DNA of 62,649 nucleotides, the filler included, from Streblomastix strix (taxonomy: Eukaryota): NCBI GenBank assembly GCA_008636045.1. It is 4 parts of 4 records of this genome, joined end to end, with 100 filler letters (N's around TTAATTAATTAA, not from the genome) between each part and the next. Parts side by side here need not be neighbours in the genome. Positions count along the whole stretch, not along the records: positions 31,397 to 46,975 come from SNRW01000961.1; 3 more parts are not named here. One strand, written 5' to 3'. Positions within the stretch are counted from its first letter, which is position 1, and the number at the start of each line of letters is the position of its first letter. Shown piece by piece: positions 18,446-46,975 of the stretch. The translations under genes were made by a program, and so were the position numbers. Below the pieces are notes generated by a model. That model was not told the DNA's origin, made no database searches, and saw only the letters and a program-made list of their open reading frames with translations.

Positions 18446-18493
18446 AGAAATTAAGCATTTATTGTAAAAAATAAAACAATTTTATAAATAGTA

Positions 18494-19800: not shown

Positions 19801-19859
19801 AATCCTTTATATAAAAATAATTTAATGATTAAAAATAAAATTATGTATTCTTACTAAAA

Positions 19860-20469
19860 TCACATAATGATATATTTATCAACCAATTTCTAATAAATAA
19901 ATAGACAATAGCATTAATTTGGTAATACAATCATTTTCGTATGAGCATAAGAAACGTCATTTGTAGACGTTTAATTCCAACTTATTTTTCAATTATATTT
20001 TGCAAATGAAATATTTTTACCTTTAGTAACAATAACATTCATAATATTATCTGCAACTGCAATTTTATTCACTTGTTGAATAGTTTTTAAATTAAGACTT
20101 TAAAAATTTCATTGAATAAGGAAGTTTTTTATCATGATTTTCAAACAAACAGTAATTCTTTAGAGCTAATGCAATTTTTGATATTCTTCAATGTTCATAA
20201 GCAACATCAAGTAAATTGAATTCAACATAAGCATCTTTACTCGGATCTGGTTCGAATTTTTAGAAATTTTCATTATTGAATTATTATTCTGTAACAATCT
20301 CAGAGAATCTTTGAAAATAATCATTATTTAGATTACTGGTTAAAGCTAACATTATTTAATCAATATCACTATAAATGAAATGAAATTTATTGCTATCCTT
20401 GATATGTATAAAGGAAATAGAAGTAAATATTCTTATAAACCTATTTTGCACAATCTTATACACCATATG

Positions 20470-20505
<36 letters not shown>

Positions 20506-22200
20506 TACAATTAAATTTCTATTTCTCATACTCAACAGCTTAAGCATTATCAGCAAATTTACGATTACCTTTGAATTTTTTATTTAAGTGAGTACTAAAA
20601 GTTTCATTTCTATCACATATCTTGAAATCCATAAATTTTACTTAATTTGTACGATCACTTCCATATGAGCTGTTCGATGAAATCTTACTATACAATTCAA
20701 ATCTATTATTCTTACGAAAATTAGATGTAATGCGTTATTAACTGATATTTTATATAATTGATGAAAATTCATGATGCTTATAAATTGCTATAATAGATTT
20801 TGCTTCGTCAGTTATATAATGGTAATCATCAACAAGAAACCAAAAATAATATGAACTGAAAATCTTTATTTATTATATGGTTGATAATTATGAAAAAAAC
20901 TTACATTTTTCTTATTTCTTAGATAAACTATTTTTATTTAATGATAATTCATAAATTTTCTTCTTACATTTTCTAAACGTCGTTATTTTATTTTCTTAAT
21001 TTTATGTGTACAATTAATATAATCATTATTGTTTAACTTATAGATATGACCTGTAATCTCCATAATGAGAAACTTTACTTTATCAATTTTTGATTTCTGT
21101 AAAGATAACCATAAAATATTATTAATTTTTAGTAATGATTTTCATTTATGAACTAATGATTTAACCTGTATTTTTATAAAACGTAACCTGGAATTGAAAT
21201 CTAATAACCTAGATGTATAATATAATCATGTTTCTATTGGCTGATAACTGCTGTATACGAAAAATTAAATAAAAATCAATTAAATATTTCATTGTATTAT
21301 CCAGATCATAACTTATAAATTTTTCATCATCAATTTTCATCTAAATAATATGAGTTTCTCCTTAATTATTAAATCTATGAATATCATTATCTAAATCACA
21401 TGAATTTTCATTACATAAATCGTGATAAATATCACTGCTAGTAATTGACTTTTGGTAAACTTTTTGCAAAATAATATTTATTGATTTAATTTGCTAATCT
21501 AGAAATTTTTGAATCCCTGTAAGATCTTGCTTCTTAACAGTATTTGCAAGCAAATCTTTCGTTTTCTTTACTATGTCTAAGGGAATTATCAATTCTGTCA
21601 AATGTTGGTTAATCAGATATTGAAAATTTTGCTTTATAAAACCTTAATGAACTAGTCTTAATTAATTCTTTGTAATATTCATAATCAGATTCATTATTAT
21701 TATCTTTTCTATATCATCCTGCATTAAGATCCAAAATATGGTAATTTCCTATATTTTTTCACTAGCAATCATATACAAATTCGAATGGTTAATCACAAAT
21801 CATTAAGAAATCGCTATTACTATCAAAACGAGAATTCAAGTCAAAATCTTAACAATTTATCATTTACTTAATAGAATTTGCAAAGTATTCTATTTAATTA
21901 TAATTAAATATTTCAGTTCTATTACTAAAATTCATTTCAATAAGTCTATCTATTAGTATAGTAATGATAGTTGTATCCAATTCATTGTTATATTATAAGT
22001 AATCCCAACGATTATTAAAGTTCTTACTATCTTCTAATTAAAGTTTAAAATCATCATCAGATATCCGTTCTTCACGAAGTATTTTATTGAAATTTTCATA
22101 GGAAAATTGTTTGTTTTTTTCAAAACCTTCAATATTATTTTCTATTTTAATTTCATCAAAATTTAATACTTCTTTATTATTATTATAGTAAATTCAATTT
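19860..22200 (-). pseudogene. polB: Protein-primed family B DNA polymerase (Polinton-like, family A), decayed, 5' part missing
   Basis: ExoIII-like RWDYLQYNNELDT; HNH-like PTFDRIDNSLRHSKENERFACKYC; HRFNNQGETHI; WFLVDDYH; motif B SKISSNSSYGSD; motif C FIYSDID; C-terminal TKMIVLPNQ. Confidence 0.8.
20472..20501. repeat. (AT)15 microsatellite inside the dead polymerase gene
   Basis: Direct observation. Confidence 0.9.
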
Positions 22201-25599: not shown

Positions 25600-28500
25600 A
25601 AATAGATTTTCAAAAATAATAATTATGAATTTTATATTTCACAATGTAGATTGGTTTTTAACGATGGAATTTGTGAGATTTTTTCATTTCGTTGACTGGC
25701 GACAAATTCCCATTCATTTAATCCTTTTTCAATCATCTCAGCCTATTCGCCATGCAATTACTCAAATTTATGGCTCGAATTCCTTTTTTAATTTATAATC
25801 TTAACGTCGAATTTTCTTAATATACGTAACTTTATTCTCTTATTTTTCACAATCTCGATTTAAAATACTTTGTTTGCAATCTTTTTTGGTTTTTACTCCA
25901 ACACGCTAGATGTACTCATTCCATCTTTTTATTCTATAAAGCTGTTTTTTATAAATATTTCAATAGCTGCTAAATATGCTTCGATAATGTTTTTTTTTTG
26001 CTTTAGTAATTGGAATTTTACTTAAATTTACAGCTAAAATGTCTTTTTGCAAGAAATATTAATAAGTTATCATAAAATAGTTTTTAATGATCTAATTCGT
26101 AAACTTACTTGAAGAATTTTGTTTTATCAACACTAATAGTTAGACCATTATATATTATGAAGATACTGATAATGTTTAGTACTAAATATATTCAATTTGT
26201 TATAGATATTTATATGAGATTGCTATGATTTAATATTAAAATCAGCGTTGTAACGTTTTATTCAGTGTGTGGATTTACATATTTCACTTCATATTCTAAT
26301 TAATCGTCAGAAATTATTGATTTCAATGATTCAATATCATGTTATGACATATCGCTGAACTTTCTTAGCTCATTTCCAACAACTGAAACTATAAATAACA
26401 ATGAACTGTTGAATTTGCTTCCGATAAATGATAGTTTTGTAAAATTTCTCTCTGAATATCCATCAATTAATTCGCTTAATACATTCGTAATCATTTTTTT
26501 TTCTGTGCCTTTCAAGCCTGTTAATATAATACATACTTCTGTTTGTAACTACGGATATTAAATCAAGTGGGAAATCTAATTCGGGATATATTCATAAATC
26601 TACTCATAGTCATTTGCAATAACTTTTCTTAAAAGGTGCAGTATCGGTGAAATTACTTATAGTTAATAGTAATATGAAAGAAAATCGTATGTCCAGAATT
26701 AAAAATTTGAAAAAACACTGTGATCGCTGCTTATAAAACATATATCAGTAATTAATAAGAAATCCTATTAAATATTTGCTATTTATCACAGTACTTATGA
26801 CTTCAAATCAATATATTTCGAATTTTCATCTTGAAATTTTCTTGCTATATCAAAGTAAAACCTTAGAATTTCATAAAATAAATTCTTTCCAGATTGCTCA
26901 TCATCGTAATAATCCATGTTTTCGATTTGAAATTCAAATATTGTTTCAGACTTTTTCTTTTGCAACAATGTTGTTTCAGTTTTATTTTGCAAACCTTGAA
27001 ATACAGTAATTTATGACAGCTACTTCTAAATTCTTTTTTATTTTAGTATGTATACCACCTCTCCCCAATATTTCTAAATTCTAAGTATTTTTATCAAGTT
27101 AGATATGAGTTCCTCGATGCATTTATAAGATTTTACTCTAATTTTATGAGAAATATCATCTAAACTGAATTATACTTTTATTTCTATGTTTTGAACCTCT
27201 ATCTTCTTGAAATCAATTGCATCGGTTTACGATCCGTTGCGTTATTTCCTTTTTTGAAGCCAATAACGGAATAAATTATTATAGATAATATTCTAACTTG
27301 AACATTTTAAAAAATCCCTGAAAACAATACGATGACTATTATTTTTCAGAAAAACTTTCATGATGCACACGAAAACATGATTTTCACGTATATAAAAAAA
27401 TTACAATTTTCTTTTATATTATCATAATATTCATTTGTGAAATCTTAATTAACATCATCGAAGGATCTCATTCCAATTATATAAGAACGCAATGTTAAAT
27501 ATGCTTAATTCTCCATCTGCGTAAGGATTATTTGTGTGAATTATGGTCCAATTAAGTCCATTAACTAATTTTTCTGCTCATTCTTTGGTATTTTCACATT
27601 TTTCCATTCAATGCTTCGAGTTGTTTGCTTAGCAATTTTACATTTTTTCTTATTATACTTAATTATGCTGCATAACTTTTATATCAAAGCTTAATATTAG
27701 AAATAAATTTTATATTTCTACAAGATCTGATTTTTCATAAGCGTTATTTAAGTCCTAATATGTAAGAAGTGAATTTCTCAATTCGTCTGTTTAATGTCTC
27801 AATTTTATTTCTGGGTTTTATGGTTTTCTCTTAGAATCTCGATATTAATATATCATGGTTCCAGGATGTACAATTTTTCTTGTTTTATAACTTTCTTCAA
27901 CAACAAATATTTCACTCATTTCTCTATCAGAAACTGCGGCAACACATAAAAATACATCAACAGAAAAATCCTTTGTACAAATTATATTAACCATAGAATT
28001 TTGATGTAATTTGCATGGACCCATGTTATAATAAATATGAATCCGCCTCGTGAAAATTTAAAAAGTCCAACATTGCGGCGTCAATTGTATTTTTCCATCA
28101 AGACTTGCACATCTGTAGAAAATATATATATATCTTGAAAATCTAATTGTTTTGCAGGTTATAACAGTTATATTTTGCTACTACTTATCTCATCACTCTA
28201 TATAACATCAAATTTCATTTCATTATTAATGTTTATATTAATTGCTGTCAAGTATTTGCTTTAAGCAATCTCAAGAGTATGACTTATGCATGAATTATTC
28301 TTTTTTTTTGACATAGTCTTTATCAGAATGATAATTGGTTTGATATGCTATCTTATTATAATTATATAGAATAATTTGTCACAATATAACTTTTTCTGCT
28401 ATTCTTTTAGAAATTTAATTTTTAGAACTCTCTCTATACGATAAATCATGTGTGTTTTCTTGAACTACACCATTTTCATTAGTTTACACGAAGATCCATG

Positions 28501-28700
28501 TAAAGATCTAGTTAACCAAATTATTTATGTTATTTATAGCCCAATTATTCATATAATAAAGGATTATCTGTTTTCAAATCAAAAAGTCGAGCCTTCGGCC
28601 GTTAATATCATGTTTCATCTTTTGATTTTTACCTCTATTAAAATATCTTAGCGGATATATCCGAGATTTGAGACTTATTCTTATTTGTACATTTGTCAAA
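25600..28700 (-). pseudogene. Primase (AEP/Prim-Pol) fused to a D5-like SF3 helicase (family B element), decayed
   Basis: The 5' part aligns by eye with 45197-46854. The helicase part reads KVIANDYEQIYEYI..LIQYP..CIILTGLKGTEKK (degenerate Walker A), VVGNEL, LKSIISDD..EVKY. Confidence 0.8.
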
Positions 28701-28862
28701 TTATTAAAAGCGACAAGACAAAAAGTCAAACTTTAGGAATTTATAATTCAGTACAACATTAATTAAAAAATAAAAAATAATTAAATTTATTAAAAAATTA
28801 TTGTTAAGATTTAAATTATTTTTTAAAAAACTTTCATATTTTGGCATTTTGACAAATCTCAA

Positions 28863-31296
28863 ATGTCCACCAGATCTCACTGCAAACCTCATTATCAACG
28901 TCAAAAACAGTAACAGCAATCATTGTCTCCATTAAATAATGTAAAACGTAATAAAACCCACCCATCTTAAGATCAACTTTAACAAGTATTGATTTAATAT
29001 CGCTAAAGTAACGCAATCAACAGCAAAATCGCAACATAAATATTATGAAAACAATAACATAAACAACAACGTAAAAAAACGATTTCGAAAATAGCGTCTA
29101 ATACTTAAATCACAATCTCGCTAACAGAGTAATAAGGAGCGTAAATAACATAAATCTGCAAAAAAAATATGAAAAGAGATAGATGCATGACCAGATGAAG
29201 AGTGAAAAATATTTATCTTGGACATATCATTATGAACCAAGTTTAGAAGAAAATTCTCGCGAAACTGTCCAAAAAAACCAAGTTGGAATTCAAGATCTCA
29301 TCGATAAATACGAAGATTCTGTTTTATAACTAGTTTCTTCCGGCGATCCCGAGTTTATAAAATTATCTAAGCCTCTTAATAGGGGCTTGCTTACGTAAGC
29401 AATTAATAAATCTTGGACAAATCACAATGGAATTAAACTGGATTTTCATAATTTAGCTGGTACAACTGCAATAAAAGTTGATTTCTTTCATAATGATATC
29501 CGTCTACTAGAAGATATTGACAAATTCGTAGAATATTTATATATACATGAAAAAAGAAAATTATTTAAATGTACTTTAGATTTTGATGTCTGTATTGAAC
29601 GCAAAGAAATGCCCGAAAACATGAAGGAATTACTGAGAATCAAGAAACTTTTACATTAACTCTAAAATATTGATAGGTGCTACTTAGTTATTAATAGAAT
29701 TAAAATTCCTGAAAACAATTAAAGTTAATTACATGCCCCAATGATTCTCTTCGACAGTAATTCAATCGACATTTTCAAAGAATATATAAGCTCATCAATT
29801 TTGTTTATGCAAGAATTCGGAGAACTAATTGATGAAAAGGAATTGATTTTCTCCATATTTCCGATATAAGTTAAATCATACGGAGTACCTTTTCCTGGTA
29901 AAACATGGATGAATTGATTAAAACTCTAAAGAAAAAGAATTTTGTCAAATATATTCACCCTCATGATGATTATAAATTCAGATTCTGGTATAATTTAATG
30001 TGAATGACTATGCCTGATTCAGGATACGCCATGCTAAAGCCATAATGAGTGATAATTGATTGATATAAACGAACTGAGGAATGTAGACGTTAAATATTTT
30101 CCTTCTACAGAATTTCAAAACAAAATTAACGAAAATTTCTCAAAGAATATCCAGGATTTAATCGGAATTATGCTAATTAAAATTGTTAAAAAATTTTATT
30201 TAAATATCAATTGTTATGAATATGTCGGCAATAGATTCGATATCGATGTTAAAAAACCGAAATATTAACGGTAAATTTCATATGCTGATCCAAAAATTGA
30301 TGGATGAAAACCTAATTAAACTCTTTTATTAAATGATGATAATGGAAACAAACATACCATATATATCATAAATGTCGAGAAACAGAATCGTTTTCTTATT
30401 TGTCCAATCTTAAATAATCATTCAATCTATGAAAAGGATGAAAATAGGCACTTTTAAAGTAAATGGACGCTCATATTAAAGAATGCACGATGAAACTTTG
30501 AAATCCAAATAAATATGATAGATTAGAAAAGTTTTCAAAACCATCTATACTACATTTTACATCGAATTAAACTTAAAAATATCTGCTTGTCCACAATTGA
30601 TTATAAAAATATAAACTTACGTAATATTTCAAAATTTTTCTATTTAACTCAATATTCTAATAAGAAGATGATAGAAAATATCCTATTCTCAAAATAATAT
30701 CTGTTATATTAGCTATAAAAGCTAAGTAAGGATTAAAATCATGTTATTTTGACAGATGTCCACATAATTTCTGCGAAAGCAGCAACGATGAACGCATTTT
30801 TATAGATAAACCGCTTTATTAACTATTTGTTGAAGCAAAATAAATATAATTCGATAATAAACTCTCAGTTGATGTATTCTAACATTATGAAGTATCGATA
30901 ATTTGATTTGACTTGCATAAAACATAAATTACATTAATATTCAGAAATATCCGATCGAATAACTATGAAATTGTTGTTTTTATTGGATAATCAACATCTC
31001 CTAAAAATTTTATTATAAAATCAACTAAAAAATCTATAATTCATGAAAAAAAAGTATTTAAACTTAAGCCTTATTCGTCTTAAGTTTCTTGATGCAAAGA
31101 ACTATTTAGTTGACGATATTTCCTTTGAGAAATTCATAAAGGATGTATTCCCGAATGAAATTTAGACGCAAAGCGTCGTAGAAAATGATAAGATTTATGC
31201 AGATGCGGGTATTCTCGAAAAATCAAAATTGATGGTGAATTCCATTGGTTTCTTAAAATGTCTATGGTTCTACAAGAAAATTAACTTTTTGGCGAA
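28863..31296 (+). pseudogene. polB: Protein-primed PolB, N-terminal half (family B element), cut by the contig end
   Basis: ATGTCCACC at ~28863; colinear with the reverse complement of ~42600-45025 (VDFFHNDI, FKCTLDFDV, NINCYEY, RLKFLDAKNYL). Confidence 0.8.
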
Positions 31297-31396: not shown

Positions 31397-31661
31397 CACT
31401 TGCAGTTGTAGTAATAGGCGTAGCTAATCCTGGAACTAAATTAAGTTATAACGCCAATCTTTCTCCAGGAATTGTAATTTGCCAGTTAACTTAACATGAT
31501 TATACCATTGAACATGTTGCATTGCCTCTTGCGCCAAGTGGAGCACGAGTATATCTTTGTCCATCACTTGTCATCTGAGAAACAGGCTGATCAAAGAATT
31601 CTTGTTGACTCAATGTAAAACTTTACGGATGAATCAGTGCTTATCTTAGCACTTCTGACAT
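31397..31661 (-). CDS. N-terminus of a viral ORF, candidate major capsid protein, 3'-truncated
   Basis: ATG 31661, open to the contig end: MSEVLRQALIHPQSFTLSQQEFFDQPVSQMTSDGQRYTRAPLGARGNATCSMVQSCQVNWQITIPGERLALQLNLVPG. The capsid identity is inferred only from context. Confidence 0.45.
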
Positions 31662-31713
31662 TGAAAAATATGTTAAAACATAGTCAAAATGTTATACTTT
31701 TGCAAACTTTTAT

Positions 31714-32034
31714 ATGTAATCGCTTGCTGAGAAACTCATATAGATATAATTTGTTTATAATTTAAAATAATTTGTACGTTTTATTATTCAAACAAACGCA
31801 CAAGCAAGAAAATATACTAAAATTACTTTGGCATTCTTTTATGGATTGAAGAATTTTGGCTCAAAATTATTAGGCGGTATAAAGAAAGTTGTAGATTGGG
31901 TTGCACCCACGCTTCATAAAGTAATCGATACGTTAAGCGGACCGGTAAGCATGTTACATCCAGGTGCTGGATAAATAATGGGTACGATTGACAATATCGC
32001 CGGCGGATTTGAGCGACATTTGAATAAACACTGA
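31714..32034 (+). CDS. Small viral protein with an amphipathic, adenovirus pVI-like helix
   Basis: Intact 107-codon frame. From 31828 it reads LAFFYGLKNFGSKLLGGIKKVVDWVAPTLHKVIDTLSGPVSMLHPGAGQIMGTIDNIAGGFERHLNKH*. Confidence 0.65.
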
Positions 32035-32081
32035 TCTGAATAATTGATTTGATTACTATTTTTCATATTCGAAACTTAAAG

Positions 32082-32339
32082 ATGGAGGAATTGTATTTAT
32101 TTGCAAAATATTTAGGTAAAACTCATAGTGCGTCAGATTACGATGTATTTAAAATATTTTAAGCTCTGATTGATGATAAAGAATTATATGATGAGCAAAA
32201 ATAGTTCAATGAATAGAAAAAATAAGAATATAATGACAGATTTGGAATAATTACTGAATAAACTTAAGATGTTATAAGTTATATTCACAATTTTGATATG
32301 TCAAATTGTGTAAGTTAATAGAATTCACAAAACAATTGA
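32082..32339 (+). CDS. Small hypothetical viral protein (85 aa)
   Basis: Intact ATG to TGA under TAR=Gln (MEELYLFAKYLGKTHSASDYDVF...); overlaps the convergent ORF by 55 bp. Confidence 0.5.
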
Positions 32340-32767
32340 TTATATGGATCTTGAATAAACTAATTATAAATCTATTTTTCTTCATCATTTGCTTCAGATA
32401 TAATGTATTTCTTTATTTATTATGGTAGCTGATTCATATCCATCATCTTTTCTATTTGATTATATTCATTTGCGTATTATTTACTGTTATCGCCATATTT
32501 TTTATTTTTATAGTCCTCTTCATTTACGAATTATTTCATTTGTTGCAATTTGCATTATAGAGTTGAAAATTATTTGCTAATTTTTAACAATTCTTTAAAT
32601 AACACTTGCTATTATTCTGATTTATCTTTGATTATCAGAGAATGCAGAGTTTCTATTGTTGTATTTATTAGATCTTCATCTTCATAATTTGATTTAGAGA
32701 GTTCAGTGAAGAGTTATTTTAGTTGTTTTGACATATTTTCTACCCAACTTTCAGTTGAAACATACAT
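32285..32767 (-). CDS. Hypothetical viral coiled-coil protein (160 aa)
   Basis: Intact ATG 32767 to TGA 32285 under TAR=Gln (MYVSTESWVENMSKQLKQLF...). Confidence 0.6.
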
Positions 32768-32802
32768 TACTTGCAAAAATAAATTAAATGCAACTATTTA
32801 AA

Positions 32803-35027
32803 TCACAGAAGAATCAATCCTAATGTTATTAATTTTGCACGCCAACATTCGTTAGACTCATCTCTATAGAATCGACCTGTTGTATCTGTACTATTTTAAC
32901 TCTATAAGATTGAATTTCAAGCAGAATAATTAATTGAACCACTGCTCGCACTACCAGTTGCTCCAGTTCCAGTAATTACTGATCCATTGAAAGATAAAGT
33001 ATTTCTTTCAGCACTTTTTAATAGCACTCTATTAGCTATATTTTATTCTGATGTTTTAGCTATTAATAATGATTTATCATATTTTTTGTATATTGACCAT
33101 TAATTATCAATTGCACCAGTAGTTGAATTTGGGTTGCAACCCAAGTAAAATAAAAAATAATTACCTGAGGTATTAGCTATACAGAGTCCGTCATTTTCAT
33201 TACCATTTAAAGGGTTAATTTATAAAAGTTTATTGAAATATTTTTACCAATAACTGTTTAATCAGTTCCAACATCCACTAATCCATTATCATTAAATCAT
33301 ATTTATGAACTTTCATTATTAATACTTAATCCAACGCTATGATCTGTTTATCGCAATGAACAAGGTACTAAAGTTAATACACCATCATTATTTTTACTCA
33401 CTTCCCATTATCCTGCTACTGTTCCACTAATTGTAGAATTATTGCATGCTAAATATAATGATGATTCATTCAAATGAATTCCAATTCTAATTCCCTTATT
33501 ATAGTTTGATTTCATTCGATCTGTTGGATTAATTTATAGAGTATTTGGCATTATACTTCCATACCCATAGTCATAATTGATAGGTATTTATGTTTCAGTT
33601 GATACTGTGGTAACGACATCTTATGTTAATTTCTCGGGGATTCTAGCAGTAGAATAAGTGTTTTAATCAGTTACTACTGTCTTAATAGTACCAACTGTTT
33701 CTAATCTAATATATGCAGAATAATAGCTGCTGTGCATCTTCAAGTATGAGTATGAAATAATTAATTTGCACCATTATCAATCTAATAACTAATATTTACT
33801 TTGGTTGGTGCTGTAAATATTCCATATATAGTAGTGAAAACATTTACAGTAAAATTACGTTATAGTCTGATGATTTGAACTGCATTGTAAGCTGAATATA
33901 CTTTAAATTCAATAAATGGACTACCATAATTTGCATCTGCAGGAAATACACATAATCTAACCCATCCAGAACCAGAATATGTTCTTGAAAGCATAATTTC
34001 TTTTGTGGTTGTTTCACCATTAGCACATAAAATTTCTGTAGCTAATCCTCCAGCTTTAATAAATTTAATTGCTGTTATATTTCCATCATTAGATAATTAT
34101 TTTGGAATAACATGATCATTTCTACAATAATAATCACTTGTACCATAAGCCACTGCTGATACATTGACTAGTAGTACATTAGTAACTGATGGATCAATAT
34201 TCAATGGATGTTAATGTTCCGATCTAGCATATATATTAGACGAACCAGCTGTTCCAGCACCAGTATCTTTTTTCGGAACACTATTACTTAAATTTACAAG
34301 ATGAGTATGGTCAGATCTCACATAAATATTGGCAGTGCCTACATCACCAGTTGCAGTATCTTTTGCAGGTAAAACAGTGGAAACTTATAGAGGATGTTAA
34401 TGGTCTCCTTTAGCATAATCATTTTAAATTCCAGAAACACCTGCTCCACTATCCGCTAATGGTGTATTATCACCTGCTGGGGCTACCTAATCAGGTACTA
34501 TATCACCACTATTATACCAATTAGTTTCATACATCCATACAGTACCACTTTCAGCTGAGAATGCAAAATCACCATTGGCAGAGTTTTCTAATTATTATAT
34601 ATCTGTGTTCAATAAATAATATCCCCTAAAATGTGTTTATCTATTAAGTTCATCATTAATTGCATTAATTTATAATTATAATCCACCAATATCTTAAGTA
34701 GCAGTTCCAAATGTCAATTATATTATATTAACTTCTTATTCTAATGTTGATATTTTTCCAAAGAAAAGATTATCAATAAACTTATATTTTTCGATATCAT
34801 AACACCATTTGTAACCAATTTCATTGCATAATTCTAAGAAATATCGATTGGCGCATATATTAATGAGTTTTAGTCATCAATTGTCAATTAATATTCACTT
34901 CTTGATATTTAATTACTGGAACTTGAGGATTTCCTATGATATTATATCAAATATTGGAAATCAGATTATATTAATGATCGTTCTGCTTATATCTGTTATT
35001 AACCCAGTGTCTTTGCCAACGTCACAT
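32803..35027 (-). pseudogene. Phage-tail-fibre-like protein, with a few frameshifts
   Basis: Four G-x-x-G-x-x-x-x-Y-x-R/K-x-D/E-H-x-H-P type repeats; ITAIKFIKAGGLATEILCANG; LVDVGTDQTVIGKKYF; duplicated C-terminal beta-rich modules (xINP...G.RI...LYL.C...QW). Confidence 0.7.
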
Positions 35028-36132
35028 TTGAAAGTTATGCAAAAATAAATCTGCAATGAATTTAAACATCAATTATTCATTCTTTAAGACCATATATTTA
35101 CTCAGCCACTTATTAAATTCAATGAATTCATATTTGTTACGAGTATCATATACTAACATAAATTCATCAAAATCTAAATTCCAAATAGAATTTTCTTCAT
35201 ATGCTTGCAATAAATCACTTTCGCTAAGATGAGTACCCAAACTTAAAATATGTGATAGTATTCTTGCTGTTTTGAACAAGTAACTTGGACGTAATGCAAC
35301 AAAAAATACACTGTTTTTTATATGTCTATTATCGGAAACTAAATGAGTTATTATCTTCGCTAATCAAGATGAAAATCTTTAAATTTCAGCATTACTTCCA
35401 ATATCATCAAAAAGTAACAGCGAATTCAGCAGAGAAACATGAAATAATATTGGAATTTTTTGTTATTTTTAACTCGGCATCTCCGTTCGCTTATGATATA
35501 GATAATTTCCTTTCGAAATACTCATTATGAATAATAGCTGGAACAGTAAATTTCATAATCATTGTCGGAACACTGTATTTCGTTATTTTATCAATTCATT
35601 CTTATTCAAATATCTCAGCAATTCTTCTTGCATAATCCTTTGGTTTCTCCATTTATTTTTCGATAGACGCGGATGCAAGACGTATTTGATTCTCTTCAAT
35701 TGGATTATTTTGAATAATTCTTTCCTTAATTCTTTATATATAATCTGATTTGTAAGATATGTTTAGTTCACGTAATTTCCAATAAGATTAGACTTCTTTT
35801 ACAGAATACTTGATCTCCTCAAATTTTGGTAAGAAATGCATTGCTTCCTCATAAGTTATATTGGTTAATATTATATTCTTCGAGTTAATATTCAATGCCA
35901 TAGTCTCATATGCACCAAAGTTAGAGAAATATAAAATGAAAAGATTAATTTTTTATTTGTATATTAAAATTCGTTTGCTTAATAATGTTGTTTTCCCTGA
36001 ACCAATTGCGCCAACAATATAATGATTCCCATTGGTTAAGAGTAATGAATTTCTGGTTAATGGTTTGATTTTGCATTCATCTAGCATAGAATTATCGTCA
36101 AATGTAACTGATTATATCTCTTCTAATGACAT
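35022..36132 (-). pseudogene. A32/FtsK-family genome-packaging ATPase
   Basis: ATG 36132; Walker A HYIVGAIGSGKTTLL; Walker B SLLLFDDIG; Arg-finger region LVSDNRHIKNSVFFVA. One frameshift and internal TGAs. Confidence 0.85.
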
Positions 36133-36589
36133 TTAGGATGTACGCAAATGATCGCCGTAAAAACGGCTTTATCCCGAAGGGATAATCTGTTATTATTAAT
36201 AATTAATTCTATTTTTTTGGTGTTAATTTCGTAGTATCCGTAATTTCATTATCTATTCCTGAATAGCTTACATAAATAATCTCATTAATAAAGTAATTAT
36301 GGAGTTATATTGATGCAATTTAAGTGCCATTGAATATAATCATCTATATATTCTGATTTGTTTATCGTCGTGGAAAGAAATTAAAGATGTAATCATTAGA
36401 GAAATCACAAGTGGAATAGCCTTATTTTCATTAGTCTAAGTATTCGGATGAATAAATAGAAGATTTTATTAAGGAAGCGATTGAAAAATAAGATGAATAA
36501 CTTGCTAAGATGTGGAAATATATATTGTATTTGAAGTTATTGAATTTTAAAACGAATGATAATTAAAATTAAAAAAAACATTTTACTTC

Positions 36590-38222
36590 AATTGTTATGA
36601 ACTGTGTATGAATCACATATTTGAATAGCAAAATCATCAGATAAACTAATTTAACAAATAGTTTTTATTGTAACATTATCATTAGGATCAATACAACAAT
36701 CGATAGGAATTGCATCATTCCAACATATCGAATAACTATAATTTTTTTCGGCATACATTATTGCATATAAAGGAATATTTCATGTTACTCCAGTGAATTT
36801 TGGTTTTATAGCATTATCAACGATTGAAAATAATGTATATCTTGTATTCCAAGCATTATTTGGATCTGGATGTACCATTGGTAAAGATAAATATACTCTG
36901 TTATTTTATGCTGTTAAAGTTCCCCATTAGCGAATTTCATACATTACATAAGCTATTGGTCACTAATTAATTGATTCAATTCATTCGTAATCTAATTAAT
37001 CTTTATCAATAGTATCCCCATTAGTCAGAAGAATCTGATTATTTGTTCCACTTAAATTAATGATTTTATTAGCTGTGATAGGTTATGTAAATGTCTAAGT
37101 TCCAGTAATAATTTATGTAGTATTTATTGTTATTAAATCAGTTAAAGATGATTTCTTAAAGTATTAACTTAAATAAGTAAAATTTTTTATAATTTCATTA
37201 TCTATTTATTTATTTAGTTGATCATTTATACAACTTCTATAGTCATTCTATTTCTAATTGTTATTTCATCATCGTGTCACATTCTGATTTCATTTATTAT
37301 AGTTCTTCTTCTGACGATGCTTCGAGATCTGAAATTTGTAATTCTTACTCCATTTGAAACAAAAATAAATTCGGAACCTCCATGTTTCTTTCAGAAATCA
37401 TCAGGACCAATGCCTGATTCTAGTTTGTCAGATAATCTAACGAAGTACTTTTTTACACGATATAGCTTCTCAATACTATTCCACAACACATTGTCAATGT
37501 TAGAATTAGAGACATTCTTGATGAAAACATCCATGCTTCTTACAATTTCTTTCTTCTTGTATTTTTTTGATGTGCAATTATTATATCTCATCAATGGTTC
37601 TTCCATAACAATCTCAATATCATTCTCTTCTTCTTATGTTATTAATGCCCAGAGTTTGATATTACTATCTGAATTGATTATGAAATCTTCACATTTTTTA
37701 CGGGAATTAACAGTGTGCCATGCAACATCAATGATAAATTTCTGCACTTCTAAGTTAGGATGAGATAAATATGTTTCTTTTACAACTTATTCTGGCTCAA
37801 CTTAAGCAGTTTCTCGTTAAACTTCTTTAAATTTAAGAATGTTATACTCCCTATGACCAAATCGTTAACGATTTGGCAACAAGGCTACGCAGTCTCGCGG
37901 GCGATCTGCTGAAATTCCTCTTTAGAATTCCTCATTTTCATCAGAGTTGAATTCTTTATTTAATTGAGGAGTTTACGCAGAGCGCAAGTTGATTACGTCG
38001 GTTTACATGGATGAACCGCTCAGTTCATAAGAAAATATAGGTTGGAGCTAGTTCCGTAAAATTTAAAGAAACGGAATCTAAATCTTTTTCCGAAAACCAT
38101 TTGTTACCGCATCATCAATGGTTTATAATCTCGCCTTATCTTCTTCTGAAAGTTCCTTTTTAGCAACATTTGCATGCTTACTTTTATGAACTCTAATCTG
38201 ATTCGTTTATATTGTTGACATG
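36590..38222 (-). pseudogene. Viral ORF(s) with a C-terminal fibre-like segment
   Basis: ATG 38222 starts a long open frame with a few TGAs. Near the end it reads TINTTQIITGTQTFTQPITANKIINLSGTNNQILLTNGD, a fibre shaft motif. Confidence 0.55.
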
Positions 38223-38293
38223 ATTTTGAAACCTTTTGGTTTGCTTGGAACTTAAAGTTGCGAGTTTAAATATAAATTAAATCAGATAACAAG

Positions 38294-38850
38294 ATGAATC
38301 AAGCATAAGTATTCAAGAATCTCGTAGAAAATAATACATCAATTGAGCATTTCAATGATGGATACATCATGAAAGCAAAGTAAAAGATAAAACTATATGA
38401 AGAAGGAAAGAAATAACCAAAAACATTGACTTAAGCGAACGTAAACTTTAACAAAGCGAACAATTATACAGCGATGATGAAGATATTAAATAAACTATTG
38501 TCGAAAAATCAGCGGAGCTAATTGAAGGTTATCGTCTGAAACTCGCGAAAACTCCAAAGCCAACTCCATAAAAAATAATAAAGAAATCATAAATAAATTA
38601 CACTTAACCATAAGTTGATTTTGAAGAATTAATACTTTTGCGAACTAAAAATGCACTTACTAAATAATTATATCAAGATTCAATAAAGTATGTTGAAAAA
38701 ATGTAAGGATAAAATAAAGATGTTTTAGGTAAAAGAAGTAATTTTAGGAAGCATAGCGTCAGCCATAAACTCTGCCTCAAACAGAGAATCCTGAACTGTA
38801 AGAAGTAATTTCTGAAATACGTTTCAATGAAACAGATTTATGGGGATAAA
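38294..38850 (+). pseudogene. Hypothetical viral ORF, frameshifted
   Basis: MNQAQVFKNLVENNTSIEHFNDGYIMKAK...; K/Q-rich. Confidence 0.4.
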
Positions 38851-38899
38851 TATATATATCATAAAACAAATTTTATTCTTATTTAAACTCTTATTTTTA

Positions 38900-39210
38900 T
38901 TTCATATATTCTTTTAAATCAACAATTTTTGCAGAATCTATTATTTTCTTTTCCTTTTCATCGTATTTATCTACGATTTAATGCATTAAAATAAGGTCAA
39001 CTTCATTGTTTACAATCAATCTTCGCAATCTAATTTAAAATATTGCTAAGAATCAGGTGTTAATCACCGATATACTTTCATTTTTAGTAATTCCTTTGCA
39101 CGTGCACGTTTATAGCTAATTTCAGCAGCTTTAAATGCTTCTTCTTCTGTTTTATATTTAAATCGAGATGATTATCTCTTTGCATCAACGACGTTTGTAG
39201 AATTTTACAT
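38900..39210 (-). pseudogene. Small basic viral protein (KYKTxEEA family)
   Basis: MQNSTNVVDAKRQSSRFKYKTEEEAFKAAEISYKRARAK; homologue at 18120-18445. Confidence 0.55.
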
Positions 39211-39269
39211 TTTTTCAATTTAACTATTTTATAAAAAGATAATTTCCATTCTAGCAGACATCATGTTTT

Positions 39270-40514
39270 GAAATTTTATTTATATTATTAATTTAATTAA
39301 TATATTTCTTTTTCAACCAATTTGCAATATTAGACAGGTAATTTATAACATTTACATCAGAATATGGCTTTAGCAACTTGGCAACAACATTTCCATTTGA
39401 ATATCTTATGAATTCAGCTAATTCATTGAAATTTCTTCTTTATTTAAAAAACTGATGCCCTGTTTTAGAATAATCAAGATGAATAATTAGGATATTTCCC
39501 GGAAAAAATAACATAAGCGCTTGTTTCTTTTGTTATTTTTTGATTTCAAACAGCTAATTTTACTATTATCTTAAGTAAATCCCTTCAATATCATGATAAG
39601 GATTGACTTATTATTGGGTAAATTTATTGTCATAGGCAGAATGAAGAGTCTAGTTATACATCTATACCATATATTGCATTAAATCATTATCTGCAAACTT
39701 CTCAGAATAATTGCCAAATCCATTGCGAATAGTTCTGATAACAGAATCGACGACTTTGTTATGATTTGTGAATTTAGATTCGGTAATGAATGAATTAATG
39801 TTATTCTCTAAATAAAATGTTTTCAATATATTTCCATCAAATCCTTTCTCGCCATCGCCTCTGATATTCGTAACATTATAATTTTTAACCAATATTTTCA
39901 ACGCATTCTTGATTTAACCTGCTGATTGATCTCATAATGGGAAAATTACCAGATATTTTGTGTTAATATTTTTTGCAGAAGAGATATATTTAATTTACAC
40001 GAATGATATGTTCGTCCATTGAAAATACCAAATTAATTTCTCAAGATCCGAAATATGGAGAATAATATGGACGATTTAGCTTTGATAAAGGTTCTATTTA
40101 ATAATCATTAGGAGTATCTTGTACTTTTTGAGGTATTTCGCCATGAATCTTCTCATATTATTCAATTTTCTTTTTAAATGGATAATTTAATAGTTTTGTT
40201 GAGACTGCGTCATTTCATCGCTAAATCGCTGGCGATTTTGATGTTACTTATTCTTGTTTTACTGCTTACTCACGAAAGTGAGCAGGCAACGAGGTTGCTT
40301 ACAAACTAGGTTTGTTTTGTAATCTTGGAACACTTGATTAATCATATTTTAAAACATACTATTTAAATAATTACTCAAACATCTTTTCATTGAATTTTTC
40401 TTGATTTCACTTATTCGAATTCTTGACAAACTCTTAAAATTTCATTTGATTCATGTTATGATATGCAATATATTCGATCCATTTTGACACTTTTTCCTAT
40501 GTTTGTACGTTCAT
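39270..40514 (-). pseudogene. Polinton-type rve integrase
   Basis: ATG 40514; LNRPYYSPYFGS*EINLVF, YLFC.NINTKYL, NIRGDGEKGF, FTNHNKVVDSVIRTIRN, MYNQTLHSAYDNKFT. Contains frameshifts. Confidence 0.88.
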
Positions 40515-43500
40515 TTATAAGTTTATGCAAAAAATAATTTAAGATAATTATTGACGGTTTAAAAGCTGCACATTGAATATGGCTCATCAATTATATATTT
40601 ATCAGCGTTAATTCCATATAAGATAGATGAGCATGATTGATTTTTAAGAACTATTGTTTTTGTTCTAATTCCACTAAAGCCAAAACGATTTGATATTACT
40701 TCTGACATTAAACCTTATTTTTAAATTACAGATTTCCGTGTAACTTCAGTGTGATAATCATCTTAAATATTTTTAATAAAGAATTTCTTGAAATATTCAG
40801 ATTTTACTATTGATTAATCACTCTTAGCTTCATAATTTCGCAGTTGTCATACGTCTCTAAATAATAACACTTAGGGGCTAAAGCAAAGCATGTTTTTACT
40901 TGATGTTCAATGTTTCAACCAAGTAATTTCTTCTTTTCATGAATTTAATCAGATATTGAGAAAAATTAAAGATACAATTTATTCCATAATTTTTAGCTAA
41001 GAATTGGCCAATTTTTATCAGCGATTCTTAATCATAACCTGTCTGTATCACCGTAAATTACATGTATTTTATTCATATCAAGACATCGAACAAGAAAATT
41101 AAAGAAAGCATTAAGATAGAAATATTTGGAAATATCCATCACGAAATAAGCTACTTATAAAAGTGTTGAGCATTAACAATTCCGCTTTTCTAACTCCACC
41201 TCAGATAAATTATCAGAAAAATATCTTTCTGACTTAAATGTATTTAGCATATGATACATGCCAAGTTTTTATCTATTGCATATCCTAATATCTTGAAATT
41301 TCTCAGTATTTAGTGCATCATAACCAAATGAAGCATTCAGTTTTATTTTATACATTAATTCTAGATTTTTATTACCTGCAGCTTAAGCATCACATTTAAG
41401 CTTATGAGTTTCATAGACGAATTCGTGAAATGAAGTATTTTTAATGTATATTGTGATTCATTGTATTTCATCAATTATAATATGACATCTATCTATAAGA
41501 AACCATAAGTAATAGTTGTTTAAAGTCATGAATTCATTATGCGTCGACGATAGCATAAGTAATTTTGATTCTTCTTTATCGCATGCTACTTGATGTTCAG
41601 TCATATTTTTGTAAGTATATTCTCCGACAGTTTGCATATTCATTACTATCTTAAAATTTTGCCTAATTACAAGTAAATTTATAAATTCATTGATAAATTC
41701 TTCTGGAATATGAGCTTTAACAACTGCAATGAACAATTAAACCTTGTTTTCGATGATATCCTCATCGCAAGAGAATCTATTTTCATTATAAATTATTTAT
41801 CTAGCTCTGTATTCGTCTTTCACTAATGGAGTTATATCTCCTGGCTTACACATCTTATGATTTGTGTACTGAATCAGAATATGCGAACTTGAGCTCATTA
41901 CAGAAAGGATAAAAGGAATTGAAATCAAGGCATGTTAGATGTGAGATGATATAGGACAAATCTATGGAATGAACTGCTTTATCTGAAGAATTATACTTAA
42001 ATCTGTTAATTGGTATTAATCCAGATATATTTTCTCTGTGCAATACGTACGAATTTCCTCCAATCATACTGTTCCGTAAGATTTTATAAACATCTTGGTC
42101 AGAAATAGTCATTGCAAGATGATTAAGTTATGCGAATTTTCGTAATTACTTCATTAGTCGACATATATCTTTATCTTTGTTTGATGCATATTTATTGCAG
42201 TAAAGAGAACAAGGCTTAACAATAGTTTTTATGTGAGACTTTTCGTTATCTATTCTATATAAAGTTGGTTGATTTTTATAAGAAAATCTAGATTAACACA
42301 TATGGCAGCTAAACGATATGAATAAATCATGAAAATGTTTATAATCAGAATCAGATGCATTGTGATCCACGCCTAGTTTTTTTTAGTTTGTCTTGTGGTT
42401 TATAAGATTCCACTTTATATTTCCATTATTTTTCGGTTAAATTAAATGACAGATCATTAGTTTAAGGAGAATAAGCAACTCCGTTGCCTGCGCACCTTGT
42501 TGTATAATCAATGTCAATATCAAAATTCTTATAAACTTGAGAATTTTTATCAAGACAAGCAAGTTTAGCAAGTGACATATTCACTAATAAGTCAATTTTG
42601 TTTTTGACATATAGATTTATTAAGAAATCGATGGAATTTATCATCAATTTTGATTATTCGAGAATGTTATTTTCTTAAAACATAGCTTAACCAACTTCCT
42701 CTATGAATTTCTCAATCGAAATTTTGTAAACTAAATAATTCTTTGCATCAAGAAACTTAAGACGAATGGAGACTACGTTTTAATCTTATTTTTTCATGAT
42801 TTAAATATATTTTTCGGTTGGTTTTACTATAAAATATTTAGTAGATGATGTTTATCCAACAAAATCGACAATTTTATAGTTTTTCGATCGGATATTTCCG
42901 AAAATCAAGGTATTTGTTATTTTTAATGAATCAAATCCAATTAACGGTACCTCGAAACGTTAAGATACCTCATCATGGTTCGAAACATTAGCATCTTAAC
43001 TGCTTTGCGGGGACATATTATAGATTTTAACTTACTTTGTTTCTGCAAATAGTTAATCAAGCCATTAATCTACAAAACTGCGTTCCTCATTGTCAAGCTC
43101 TGCTTGAAAACTCGCTTAACTTCAATTGAAATAGCATGTTTTTATTCCAGACTTAGTTTAAAAGTTGATACAACAGAAATTGGTTTGATTACAGGGTATT
43201 TTATATAATCTTCTTATTGAAGCGCTGAGTTAATTAAAAAAAAGTAATATAATATTACGTTGTCTTATATTCTTATAATTGATTGTGAGAAAGAAGATAT
43301 TTATAAGTTTAATTCGATGTAATATGCAGTGCAAATGGTTTTGAAATCTTCTGTAATCTAACTTATTTATTTGGATTTCCAAGTTTCATCATGTATTCTT
43401 TAATGTGAGCGTCCATTTTGCATTAAATATGTCTATTTTCATCCATTGCATAGATTGCATGATTGTTGCATATTGGACAAACAAGCTTATCAATCAGTAT

Positions 43501-45025
43501 CTCAACGTTTACGATATATATGATATGTTAGTTACCCATATTATCGTTTAATAAGAGAATATTATAAGGTTTATGCTCATCAACTTATGAATCAGCAAAT
43601 GAAATTAGTCGTTAATATTTTGGGTTTTTTAAATATCATCTTCGAATCCTTCGCCGACGTATTCGTAGCAATTGATATTTATATTATATTTTTCGGCAAC
43701 TTTATTTGCATCATTCCAATTAAATCCAAGATATTCTTTGAGAAATTTACGTTAATTTTGTTCTGGAATTCCGTAAAAGGAGAATAACAAACGTTTTCCT
43801 TCCGCAATTCGTATATGTCTATCAATTTCAACGTCTTTCGAATAAAGCATAGTTACGCATGTTAAATTATACCAGAAACAGATGTTATAATCATCGTCAA
43901 TATCTATATATTTGATAATATTGCTTTTCTTATGAATTTTAATCAACTCTTCCATGTTTTTACGCGGAAAAAGTAGTCTGTGAGATGTAATTTACATCGA
44001 ATAGATTGCGGCAATCAATTCCTTTGTATAAATTAGTTCTCCGAATTCTTGCATAAATAAAATTGATAAACGTACATATTTTTTGAAAATATCGATTGAG
44101 TTTCTATCAAAAAGAATCACTGGAGCATGCAATTAACTGAAATTGTTATTAATAAGCTTAATTCTGGAAGTAACTAAGTAGCATCCGTCAATATATTGGA
44201 GTTTATGTATAAGTTTCTTGTTTTTCAGTTATTCCTTCATGTTTTCGAGCATTTCTTTACGTTCAATACCGACATCAAAATCAAAAGTACATTTAAATAA
44301 TCTTCCTTTTTCATGTGTGTACACATATTCAATGAATTTGTCAATATCTTCCTGTGAACGGTTATCACTATGAAAGAAATCAACTGTTATTGCAGTTGCC
44401 TCAGTTAAATTATGAAAATCGAATTTAATTCCACTGCGTCTGGTCCTAGATTCATAAATTGTTTACGTAAACAAATCCATATTTAGCAGATTAGATAATA
44501 GCATAAACTTGGGATCGGCAGAAGAAACTAACTATAAAACAAAATCACCGTATTTGTCGATAAAATCTTGAATTTCAACTTGGTTTTTTCTGAGAATTTA
44601 TTGACAATTTTCATCTAAACTTTGTTCTTAATGATATATCCAAGACAAGTAATTTTCACAATTCATCTAATTGCGCGTCTATCTCTTTTCTTATTTTTTT
44701 TTACAGATTTACGTTATTTACGCTTCTTGTTTCGCAGTTTGTGAGATTCTGATTAAAGTTTGCGATACTGTTTTCGAGGTTAATTTTCGATGTTTTCTTT
44801 AAGATTATTTCTTGGAGGTTTTATATGCAGCTTCGTCGGCGAACTTTTAACTTACAAATTTTGCTGATGATTAAGTTGCATTTGTGATATTAAATCACGT
44901 GTCTGTTAAAGTTGATGTTAATATGGGCGTGTTTTATTATTTTTTGCCTTATTTAATGGAAGTTATGATTGCGGAAGCTGTTTTTGACGTTGATTACGTC
45001 GTCTGCGGCGAGACTTGGTGGACAT
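40511..45025 (-). pseudogene. polB: Protein-primed family B DNA polymerase with a basic N-terminal extension and an HNH insert
   Basis: ATG 45025 (MSTKSRRRRRNQRQK); RNSMIGGNSYVLHR; motif A CLDFNSFYP; YLWFLIDRC; motif B KIKLNASFGYDALN; motif C IYGDTD; FALAPKCY. Its stop overlaps the integrase ATG. Confidence 0.92.
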
Positions 45026-45196
45026 TTGAGATTTGGTAAAATGTCAAAAAAATCAAATTCATAAAAAATAATTGAAATATTAAAAATGATTTTTTATTAA
45101 ATTTTATTATTTCTAATTTTTTAGTTTTTAATTTTTGTCATAATTAATTATTAATTCGTGATATTTGATTTTTTATTTTATCACTTTTAGTAAATT

Positions 45197-46854
45197 GGCA
45201 AATGTTTAAATAAGAAAAAGTCCCAAATCTCGGATATATCCGTTAAGATACATAAATTAGGGAAAATCAAATGATGAAACATAAATTAACCGTTAGGTGC
45301 TGAATTTTTTGATTTTGAAACAGATAATCCTTTATTATTAGAATAATTGTGATATAAATCGCATGGAAAATATAGTTAAGTAAATCTTTACATGGATTTT
45401 CGTAAATATAGTGAAAAACATGAATTTTCACCAAAAACGCTTGATTTATCATATAGATAGCGCACTAAATATGAAATATCAAAAAAATTAATAGATAGAA
45501 TTTAGTTTGCGACAATTTATCTGTATAACTATAATAAGATAGCATATCAGATCAATTATGAATCCGAAAAAGCATATGCCAAGAAAAATATGAATAAAAC
45601 ATGCTCAGGTTATACTCTTGAGATTGCATTATGCAAACACTTCGCAGTAATTGATATAGACATTGATCATGAAGAGAAATTAGATGTTTCGCAGCATGAA
45701 AAGATAAGAAATAGCATAATATAACTGTTTTAACCTGCGAAACAATAAGATTTTCAAGATGCGTTTACAACTCCAACTGATGCACAAATCTTGATGGAAA
45801 AATGCAATTAACGTCGCAACATTGGACTTGTTAAATCAGCAAGAGGCGGACTTCATACTTATTGCAACATGGGCCTTCTCAAATTACATCAAAATTCTAT
45901 GGATAATGCAATTATAACAAAGGATTTTTCAGTTGATGTATTTGCATGTTTTGATGAAATGAATTTTAGAAACAGAAATGATTTAATTGAAGTTGACGAT
46001 ACATACAAAACAAGAAAAATTGTGCAACCTGGAACTTAAATATATAAATACCGAGATTCAAAGAGAAAACAACTAAGTCCAGAGATAAAATAGAAGTTAT
46101 AAACAAACGAATTGAGAAATCCAATTCTTACATATCAGGACTTAAACAACGCTTTTGAAAATACGGATCTTACAGAAATATAAAATGTATTTCTAATATT
46201 AGGATTTGATATAAAGATTATTCAGCTCGATGTAGCAAAATTAGAAAAGATCGAAGAACGCAAAAGTTGTAGTCAAACATCAGCTGCAGGCGGAATCTAT
46301 GGCTTAGAAAAATGCGAAATGACCAAAGAATAAACAGAAATATTAGTTCATGGATTAGATGATATCATAATTCATACAAATCATCCTCATGCAGAAGGAG
46401 AATTAAGCTTATTTATGAAGTGCACTTATATAAATGGATTGTGATCCATCGACGAAGTTGATGAAGATTTCATAAATGAATGCTATGATTATATTGAAGA
46501 AAATAACAATTACTCTTCATAAGCGTAAACATGGTTTCAAGCATATCGTTAACGTAATTCTGAAAAATAATAATCGCCATATTGTTGGCAGGGATTTATC
46601 AAAAAGTTCAAGCCAGACTATCACACATAACAATTTGTTACATTATTGGCATCAAAAATGAAATAAAGCTGCAGATCAGAATCCGCTGTTATCGATTTCA
46701 AGAAGATATAAGTGCATAACATCGAAATAAAAGAATAATTCTGATTTGATGACATTATACATAAAATTAGAGTAAAACCTTATGATTGTGTTGAAGAAAT
46801 AATATCTGACTTGACAAAAATACTGAGAATTAAGAAATATGGGAGTGAGGTGAT
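45197..46854 (+). pseudogene. AEP/Prim-Pol primase domain of the primase-helicase, 3'-truncated
   Basis: FAVIDIDID (motif I), LVKSARGGLHTYCN (motif II), FSVDVFA (motif III), KIVQPGT. The homologue at 25600-28700 continues into an SF3 helicase. Confidence 0.85.
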
Positions 46855-46975
46855 AAATTTACGTTAATTTTGTTCTGGAATTCCGTAAAAGGAGAATAAC
46901 AAACGTTTTCCTTCCGCAATTCGTATATGTCTATCAATTTCAACGTCTTTCGAATAAAGCATAGTTACGCATGTT
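46855..46975 (+). repeat. Exact 121-bp direct copy of 43743-43863 at the contig end
   Basis: AAATTTACGTTAATTTTGTTCTGG...GTTACGCATGTT is identical at both positions. Confidence 0.95.

Follow-up and report, generated by a model that had tools for sequence, protein, structure and literature searches.

Evidence for a truncated and decayed copy of a Polinton-type virus family, written in the TAA/TAG=Gln code, in the oxymonad Streblomastix strix

The stretch of Streblomastix strix DNA analysed here (62,649 nucleotides of assembly GCA_008636045.1, hereafter the window) consists of four unrelated contigs of nearly equal length at 1-15605, 15707-31296, 31398-46975 and 47076-62649. A block of viral genes makes up the entire third contig, which is 15.6 kb long (31398-46975) and has a GC content of 28% compared to 24-26% in the other three. 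In the initial annotation it was described as a near-complete Polinton-like virus of an anaerobic protist, encoded in the host's TAA/TAG=Gln code. The single intronless block, its Polinton-type viral nature and its code were all recovered. Completeness was not: the contig breaks off within two genes, that of the capsid (114 of ~ 650 codons kept) and that of the primase-helicase, and its final 125 nt are a copy of positions 43739-43863. We consider it very probable that the block is a truncated and decayed copy of a multi-copy, Polinton-type virus family of S. strix, likely integrated, whose ancestor used TAA/TAG as Gln codons and built double-jelly-roll (DJR) capsids. The features of the block, followed by those of two related copies in the neighbouring contig, are listed below (ORF, open reading frame; pPolB, DNA polymerase B of the protein-primed type).

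31398..31739, minus strand: DJR capsid gene, 5' 114 codons, 87% identical to the 652-aa S. strix protein P0003
31828..32034, plus strand: 68-codon gene of a small basic amphipathic peptide, in head-to-head arrangement with the capsid gene; relatives in the metagenomic loci L001, L004 and L005
32082..32339, plus strand: small ORF of ~ 85 aa, open under table 6; no significant Pfam match
32285..32848, minus strand: 187-aa ORF with weak matches only
32917..34873, minus strand: fibre-like gene 1 (putative fibre role), in three frames, with four D/E-H-x-H/I repeats
35022..36117, minus strand: putative packaging-type ATPase (A32/FtsK-like), from tblastn and Walker motifs; one frameshift, two internal TGA
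36098..36427, minus strand: beta-rich open stretch, not shown to be a penton; missed by profiles of the penton-like ORFs of L002 and L005
36582..37205, minus strand: fibre-like gene 2, with a weak match to L005; four in-frame TGA (three internal ones if the final TGA ends the gene)
37391..38221, minus strand: open 276-aa ORF; no significant match in searches including Pfam and PHROGs
39344..40454, minus strand: RVE integrase with a D-D-D-type triad, from UniRef names and motif layout; one frameshift, four TGA
40511..45025, minus strand: pPolB, with putative start and end
45392..46850, plus strand: primase-helicase gene, 5' half, with DIDID and SARGGLH motifs; two internal TGA, helicase half outside the contig
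46851..46975, plus strand: direct copy (125 nt) of 43739-43863, 99% identical, with a short microhomology at the joint
25700..31296, both strands: second, diverged copy, from its nucleotide match to the block; primase-SF3 helicase (minus) head to head with the 5' part of pPolB (plus)
15707..21710, minus strand: third, older relic of another subfamily, with a fibre piece, integrase (18557-19815) and pPolB (20077-21710) in the order and strand of the block

The jelly-roll capsid, which the initial annotation had overlooked while naming its absence from the lineage as grounds for doubt, is present at the left edge of the contig. The retained piece matches 70 of 297 candidates in the protein search, all from S. 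strix. The same holds for every other named protein match, namely one of 3132 candidates for the N-terminal part of pPolB and 21 of 231 for the integrase, which indicates S. strix or a very close relative as the host. The fold was read from the full-length P0003. Its structure model, built on an alignment of 67 sequences, reaches a pLDDT of 83 and a pTM of 0.87, compared to a pLDDT of 37 for an earlier model from 27 close sequences. Foldseek aligned the P0003 model with the capsids of PBCV-1, an iridovirus, mavirus and Sputnik (best expectation value, E, 3.8e-13) at an identity of 5-10%, and virophage, adomavirus and giant-virus capsids were likewise matched in the structure search. The ESM Atlas agrees on a capsid, with clusters from Preaxostyla and Parabasalia ranking first, although the top one is possibly the capsid's own cluster. 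At the sequence level the family is remote from known capsids: 15 of its members gave no match to the Pfam capsid family and no Sputnik-type Pfam match, and capsid profiles gave non-significant matches only against PDB sequences. Compared with virophages, the fold is no closer to mavirus and Sputnik than to PBCV-1, and a cysteine protease was not found.

The replication genes are the next to be recognised. As first annotated, the window pPolB displays motifs A (DFNSFYP), B (KIKLNASFG) and C (YGDTD), and it is matched by Pfam DNA_pol_B_2 at E 8.5e-5. It is 83% identical to P0001, which in turn matches a DNA polymerase family of PHROGs (PHROG 1907, E 5.7e-12) and endonuclease VII as an HNH insert (E 2.3e-9); against PDB, P0001 gave no useful match. 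A Cys motif (DDDYNICFW) and a His motif (NQHII), read by eye, are vOTU-like and gave no profile match. The rve integrase also stood up to analysis, through its D-D-D layout and through UniRef, which names 11 of the 21 S. strix matches 'Integrase catalytic domain'. Its relatives share the motifs WEID, IRGDGEKGF and RVVDSVIRT and match Pfam rve/rve_3 only weakly (E 0.03-0.04), the profile found no match in PDB, and in the window copy the first catalytic Asp column holds Asn, directly after a stop. pPolB and the primase-like gene stand head to head on the third contig. The motifs DIDID and SARGGLH, which we take to be those of an AEP-type primase, are the part of the initial AEP assignment that held, while database support for the window piece did not follow, as described below. 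In the second copy, which is 75.7% identical to 42694-46855 over 4206 nt, the primase-helicase (25.7-28.5 kb) extends into a helicase of the SF3 type (DUF5906 at E 8.3e-11, PHROG primase at E 2.3e-8). Gene identity is firm for the capsid, for pPolB and for the SF3 helicase of this sister copy.

The ATPase that had been called A32-type carries a Walker A (GAIGSGKTT) and a Walker B (LLLFDDIG) motif and is 27-35% identical to ATPases that adjoin related capsids. With the ATPases of L001, L004 and L005 as queries, tblastn finds it in two frames at E 5e-14 to 6e-7. The relatives match terminase/VirB4-type profiles weakly and no A32 profile matched; the gene is read as a packaging-type ATPase, putatively A32/FtsK-like. 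For the two fibre-like genes the motifs and repeats stand. Fibre-like gene 1 has a paralogous piece at 15707-15990 and no significant match in Pfam, PHROGs or NCBIfam; fibre-like gene 2 aligns with a fibre of L005 in BLASTP at E 0.007, and that L005 protein matches a PHROG tail family at E 3e-5.

The genetic code was examined along the whole block. Under table 1 the sole ORF of at least 100 aa lies at 37317-37763, antisense to a table-6 ORF, which agrees with the earlier observation that the genes are readable only if TAA/TAG are read as Gln. The companion claim that standard-code annotation would miss them does not apply, since the genes stand as table-6 proteins in NCBI. The 14 coding segments comprise 3207 codons, with 113 TAA, 14 TAG, 60 CAA/CAG and 11 TGA. 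The TGA count is lowered by the delimitation of several segments as open frames; the two remaining frames lead one to expect 134 TAA and 117.5 TGA per equal length. TAA/TAG make up a share of 0.68 of the Gln codons in the block and of 0.62-0.81 in five long host-like ORFs. A cleaner test comes from ancestry, in that the two window copies can be compared over 887 codon pairs (11 of 12 arms). TAA/TAG is found in both copies at 22 of these pairs (39 and 42 in each alone), and TGA in both at none (1 and 7 alone). In the capsid piece, three of seven TAA codons fall in columns where 8, 6 and 9 of 13 non-S. strix relatives have Gln, so that conserved Gln positions do use TAA. The active ancestor is judged to have read TAA/TAG as Gln. 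CAA/CAG and TAA/TAG were exchanged between the copies at 5 positions and kept at 32; this gives no support by itself, since the rate is not above that of His/Tyr or Pro/Ser exchange.

Several results weigh against the overall interpretation. As regards the code, the delimitation of segments just mentioned is one, and the other is that the remaining four capsid TAA codons and every TAA of the ATPase fall on non-Gln residues in distant relatives. As regards gene content, the fibres have no significant family match in Pfam, PHROGs or NCBIfam, and the window primase piece has none in Pfam, PHROGs, NCBIfam or PDB. No penton was found in the window frames scanned, the contig being incomplete, and no Ulp1 protease was matched by Pfam in these frames or in 26 ORFs of L002-L005, all of them partial sequences. 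Profiles of the penton-like, beta-ORF and fibre proteins of the L loci likewise gave no match in the window. Within 31398-46975 there is no host flank, terminal inverted repeat (TIR) or target duplication, both element ends being missing from this contig, and integration of the block copy itself is therefore not shown. For the small peptide, a single-sequence search with the window copy gave 0 matches and the likeness of its family to adenovirus pre-protein VI, given below, is not significant. Finally, many stops in such elements of other protists are reported to be assembly artefacts (Bellas et al. 2023, PMC10120064).

Because the block fills the third contig, its edges are contig edges and not element ends. 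With the missing parts of the capsid (~ 1.6 kb) and helicase (~ 1.3 kb) added, we infer an element of at least 18.4 kb, of which the contig thus carries most of the length but neither end. The terminal 125-nt copy is likely an amplification or assembly chimera.

The copy is not intact, contrary to what had been annotated for some of its genes: frameshifts or internal TGA are present in pPolB, the integrase, the ATPase, the primase and both fibre-like genes. Aligned with P0001 residues 4-994, the window pPolB shows 5 frameshifts and 4 TGA over 43841-40822, with an additional frameshift near 44695, and the pPolB of the second copy shows 3 frameshifts and 5 TGA. An explanation by which the element is intact and active, its stops and frameshifts being produced when many similar copies collapsed in a short-read assembly, would find its precedent in the artefacts demonstrated by Bellas et al. 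2023 (PMC10120064) in other protists. It would also fit the thousands of similar contigs (4554 contigs of run X1 align to the stretch, most at 85-95% identity, 440 at ≥ 99% and 3263 below 95%) and the open capsid frames of 644-652 aa in other copies. However, a 446-nt X1 contig equals 44570-45015 letter for letter, through the frameshift near 44695 where other copies are two bases shorter, although X1 is maybe the source sample and not independent support. Differences between the two window copies are nearly even over codon positions (210/161/215), the ratio of nonsynonymous (dN 0.218) to synonymous (dS 0.369) differences is 0.59 over 879 codons, and no TGA is common to both. Decay is the better reading of the stops and frameshifts, because the X1 contig keeps the frameshift and the copy differences are spread almost evenly over codon positions; we regard collapse as very unlikely.

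The gene set itself could be artefactual if the contig were a mosaic of two elements or subfamilies, one contributing capsid, fibre and ATPase and the other integrase, pPolB and primase, joined by amplification or assembly. Such a joint is suggested by the chimeric copy in the final 125 nt and by summed contig depth, which is far greater at 31.9-38.7 kb than at 40.7-47 kb (depth cannot rank genes), and none of the listed X1 contigs spans the stretch. The linkages are nevertheless repeated elsewhere. Indeed, fibre, integrase and pPolB recur with unchanged order and strand in the relic at 15.7-21.7 kb, pPolB and primase-helicase again stand head to head in the copy at 25.7-31.3 kb, and four S. 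strix gene models (P0226, P0227, P0234 and P0235) join the end of pPolB to the integrase; capsid-to-pPolB is not among the repeated linkages. A mosaic is improbable in our view, though less so than collapse. The least probable of the three alternatives, to which we give almost no weight, is that a standard-code virus inserted, died and then gained TAA/TAG by mutation of CAA/CAG, with no adaptation to the code. It would agree with decayed copies in an AT-rich genome and with L001-L005, relatives that are open under table 11. It is largely refuted already by the 22 TAA/TAG codons, against 0 TGA, common to copies that are 24% apart, by the ratio of in-frame TAA/TAG to TGA (127 vs 11) and by TAA at conserved Gln columns.

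The truncated and decayed viral copy thus described belongs to a capsid family that extends beyond S. strix. A capsid profile from 27 S. strix sequences matches 214 of 1.84 billion representatives, and among the 150 matches listed ten long, divergent relatives were chosen (P0094, P0110, P0153, P0161, P0163, P0167, P0172, P0178, P0198 and P0215), which come from Logan, ENA, JGI and NCBI data, their contigs reaching up to 20.6-21.8 kb. A capsid motif pattern led to five JGI contigs, L001-L005, all five of which encode a 650-aa-type capsid under table 11. These metagenomic loci and the ten P relatives resemble the S. strix element in the capsid, with 21-31% identity to P0003 and profile E values of 5e-96 to 4e-20. 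Furthermore, both the ATPase and the small peptide of the window recur in L001, L004 and L005, and L004 encodes a 942-aa primase-SF3 helicase. Unlike the window element, L001-L005 have intact genes open under table 11 and a GC content of 32-41%. The pPolB P0001 had no match in the parts of them examined (17.7 of 23.0 kb in L004, 13.1 of 21.8 kb in L002). Scans of IMG/VR with the pPolB N-part, P0167, P0172, alignment A2 and the capsid motif pattern found no relative, and GTDB genomes gave 0 relatives. When 21 capsids are placed in an unrooted tree, a long branch (100/100) sets the 8 S. strix rows apart from all others. Since this tree is unrooted, the direction of the code change in the capsid family is inferred from the host alone; for the P-numbered relatives no code is given.

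Recoded viral elements of S. strix, the headline of the initial annotation, are already in print: Bellas et al. 2023 (PMC10120064) report 820 S. strix capsid hits in one Metamonada-group cluster, with elements that use the host's table. The present element is like that group (S. strix and Trichomonas vaginalis) in host species, in TAA/TAG=Gln and in its DJR capsid, and its nearest Atlas clusters are from Preaxostyla and Parabasalia. The S. strix representatives named there either measure 562 aa or align as far as residue ~ 553, and are ~ 32% identical to T. vaginalis sequences, in contrast to the ~ 650 aa of the present capsid. Motifs of the representative listed in that paper occur in 0 of 222 fetched proteins and, by motif, in none of the 150 listed of the 214 profile matches. 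Conversely, five locus tags and three motifs of the 650-aa family are absent from the portion of its supplement text examined, which takes in the hit table in part. Literature searches for Streblomastix with Polinton, or with endogenous and capsid, turned up only PMC10120064. Taken together, we lean towards a 650-aa capsid family that is a clade separate from the published S. strix cluster, and this clade is likely unrecorded as a second S. strix capsid lineage.

With Polintons/Mavericks (Polintoviricetes), whose gene set and TP-vOTU layout of pPolB are given by Krupovic et al. 2024 (PMC11161782), the element shares a pPolB (with putative vOTU-like motifs), an RVE integrase, a putative packaging ATPase and a DJR capsid. 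It differs from them in that no Ulp1 protease or penton was found in the parts examined, in the low identity of the capsid to its Foldseek matches and in the extra primase-helicase. With its polymerase, integrase, ATPase and capsid the element functions as a Polinton would. We do not place it in Polintoviricetes on the present evidence for penton, protease, element ends and the Maverick-Polinton sequence cluster of the capsid. Its gene set had been called unusual. This holds for pPolB with a primase-helicase, an uncommon combination for which S3H has been noted in some Polintons (Yutin 2013, PMC3671162), but not for the phage-like fibres, which are described as common in Polinton-like viruses (Bulzu 2025, PMC12220804). 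The HNH-type nuclease inside pPolB recalls the pPolB2 of oomycete and nematode Polintons, to which such an insert is called unique by Jeong et al. (10.1101/2023.08.22.554363). The host here is an oxymonad, and this is a likeness of domain in which common origin is not implied.

The small peptide encoded head to head with the capsid is 30-41% identical to ORFs of L001, L004 and L005 that start with Met-Gly. These relatives open with MG[FL][FW] and have in common the motif K[ND]FGS[KR]; in the window copy Met-Gly is replaced by TTG and Ala, the start being lost. Across the family the isoelectric point (pI) is 9.6-11.3 and the hydrophobic moment 0.58-0.78 (9.6 and 0.58 for the window copy), and 6 of 222 fetched proteins show traces of the gene next to where the capsid starts. 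In L004 (16716-17196) the gene is present in two tandem copies. Against 177,635 PDB sequences, a five-sequence profile gave 6 matches at E up to 10, three of them to adenovirus pre-protein VI over LWSGIKNFGS (E 1.4-2.3); the Pfam protein VI family did not match the peptide at E 0.1. Protein VI is reported to disrupt membranes during entry, and some MELD viruses carry 'VI'-like genes (Starrett et al. 2021, PMC8502044). A short basic amphipathic helix is what the peptide has in common with protein VI and with the 'VI'-like and cupiennin-like genes of MELD viruses/adintoviruses. Unlike adenovirus protein VI, it is a stand-alone product of 68-77 aa with a Met-Gly start, and no processing protease was seen. 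A lytic virion protein seems to us the somewhat favoured role, and true homology to adenovirus protein VI is doubtful on the sequence match. The Met-Gly start makes myristoylation likely.

A possible life cycle can be outlined from these parts. A linear genome of 18-23 kb would be copied by the protein-primed polymerase, whose terminal-protein and vOTU parts are suggested by motifs, with the primase-helicase assisting replication. The ATPase would pack it into capsids of the 650-aa protein bearing fibres. At entry the Met-Gly peptide, likely myristoylated, may break the host membrane in the manner of adenovirus protein VI, and the RVE integrase would insert the genome into host DNA. Over a long residence in the oxymonad, TAA/TAG would have built up as synonymous Gln codons, by which the virus would become confined to hosts with the TAA/TAG=Gln code. 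The copy in the block would subsequently have died and drifted.

Tentatively, and with rather more doubt than confidence, we propose an unclassified DJR lineage whose marks would be a capsid of 650 aa, a myristoylated lytic peptide that resembles protein VI and stands alone, and the lack of a maturation protease. It would comprise standard-code metagenomic genomes of 20-23 kb and one branch recoded in an oxymonad while active, with pPolB and primase-helicase; in S. strix this branch would be a second family, apart from the cluster already published. If true, this would help to place the metamonad 'Polintons' and would point to an origin of protein VI in such a peptide. Trichomonad Polintons are described as not placeable in any group (Bellas and Sommaruga 2026, 10.64898/2026.06.19.733378), and further capsid and ATPase relatives bear on this question. 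What was known before, as a one-line remark, is that S. strix has recoded viral elements; a gene map, direct evidence of recoding in an active virus and standard-code sister genomes are added here. Recoded and standard-code sister genomes can naturally be set side by side to study how viruses switch codes and if host range is limited by the code, and the conserved peptide suggests an entry mechanism, open to testing, for viruses lacking any known one.

Further observations were made in the metagenomic loci. Directly after the ATPase, at 5380-7293 in L005 and 85-753 in L001, stand three paralogous beta-rich ORFs of 200-220 aa with no Pfam match, possibly extra pentons. A 701-aa ORF of L005 (7338-9443) and a 1326-aa ORF of L002 (4576-8556), both with very large inserts, have a common C-terminal stretch (E 2e-5), presumably the end of a penton-like protein. 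L004 also encodes a fibre-like protein of 1400 aa (8487-12689) in which Pfam recognises Gp10_C, a phage baseplate domain, at E 1e-11.

Elsewhere in the window, the contig at 15707-31296 consists largely of viral relics; the two relics listed above had also been overlooked in the initial annotation. Primase-helicase-like fragments are found at 3756-4304 and 58753-59094 (tblastn with P0069, E 5e-14 and 1e-39). A spaced 105-nt "repeat" reported by repeat finders at 15604, 31295 and 46974 is the contig linker and not a terminal repeat: the 100-nt linkers at 15606-15705, 31297-31396 and 46976-47075 each consist of 44 N, TTAATTAATTAA and 44 N. A 33-nt tandem array of ~ 24 copies lies at 6600-7590. 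Both of its strands are open under table 6, with an Asp-rich reading from the plus and a Ser-rich one from the minus strand. Long host-like ORFs at 60246-62648 (minus) and 3-1559 (plus) display a hydrophobic span followed by low-complexity tails and likely encode surface proteins.

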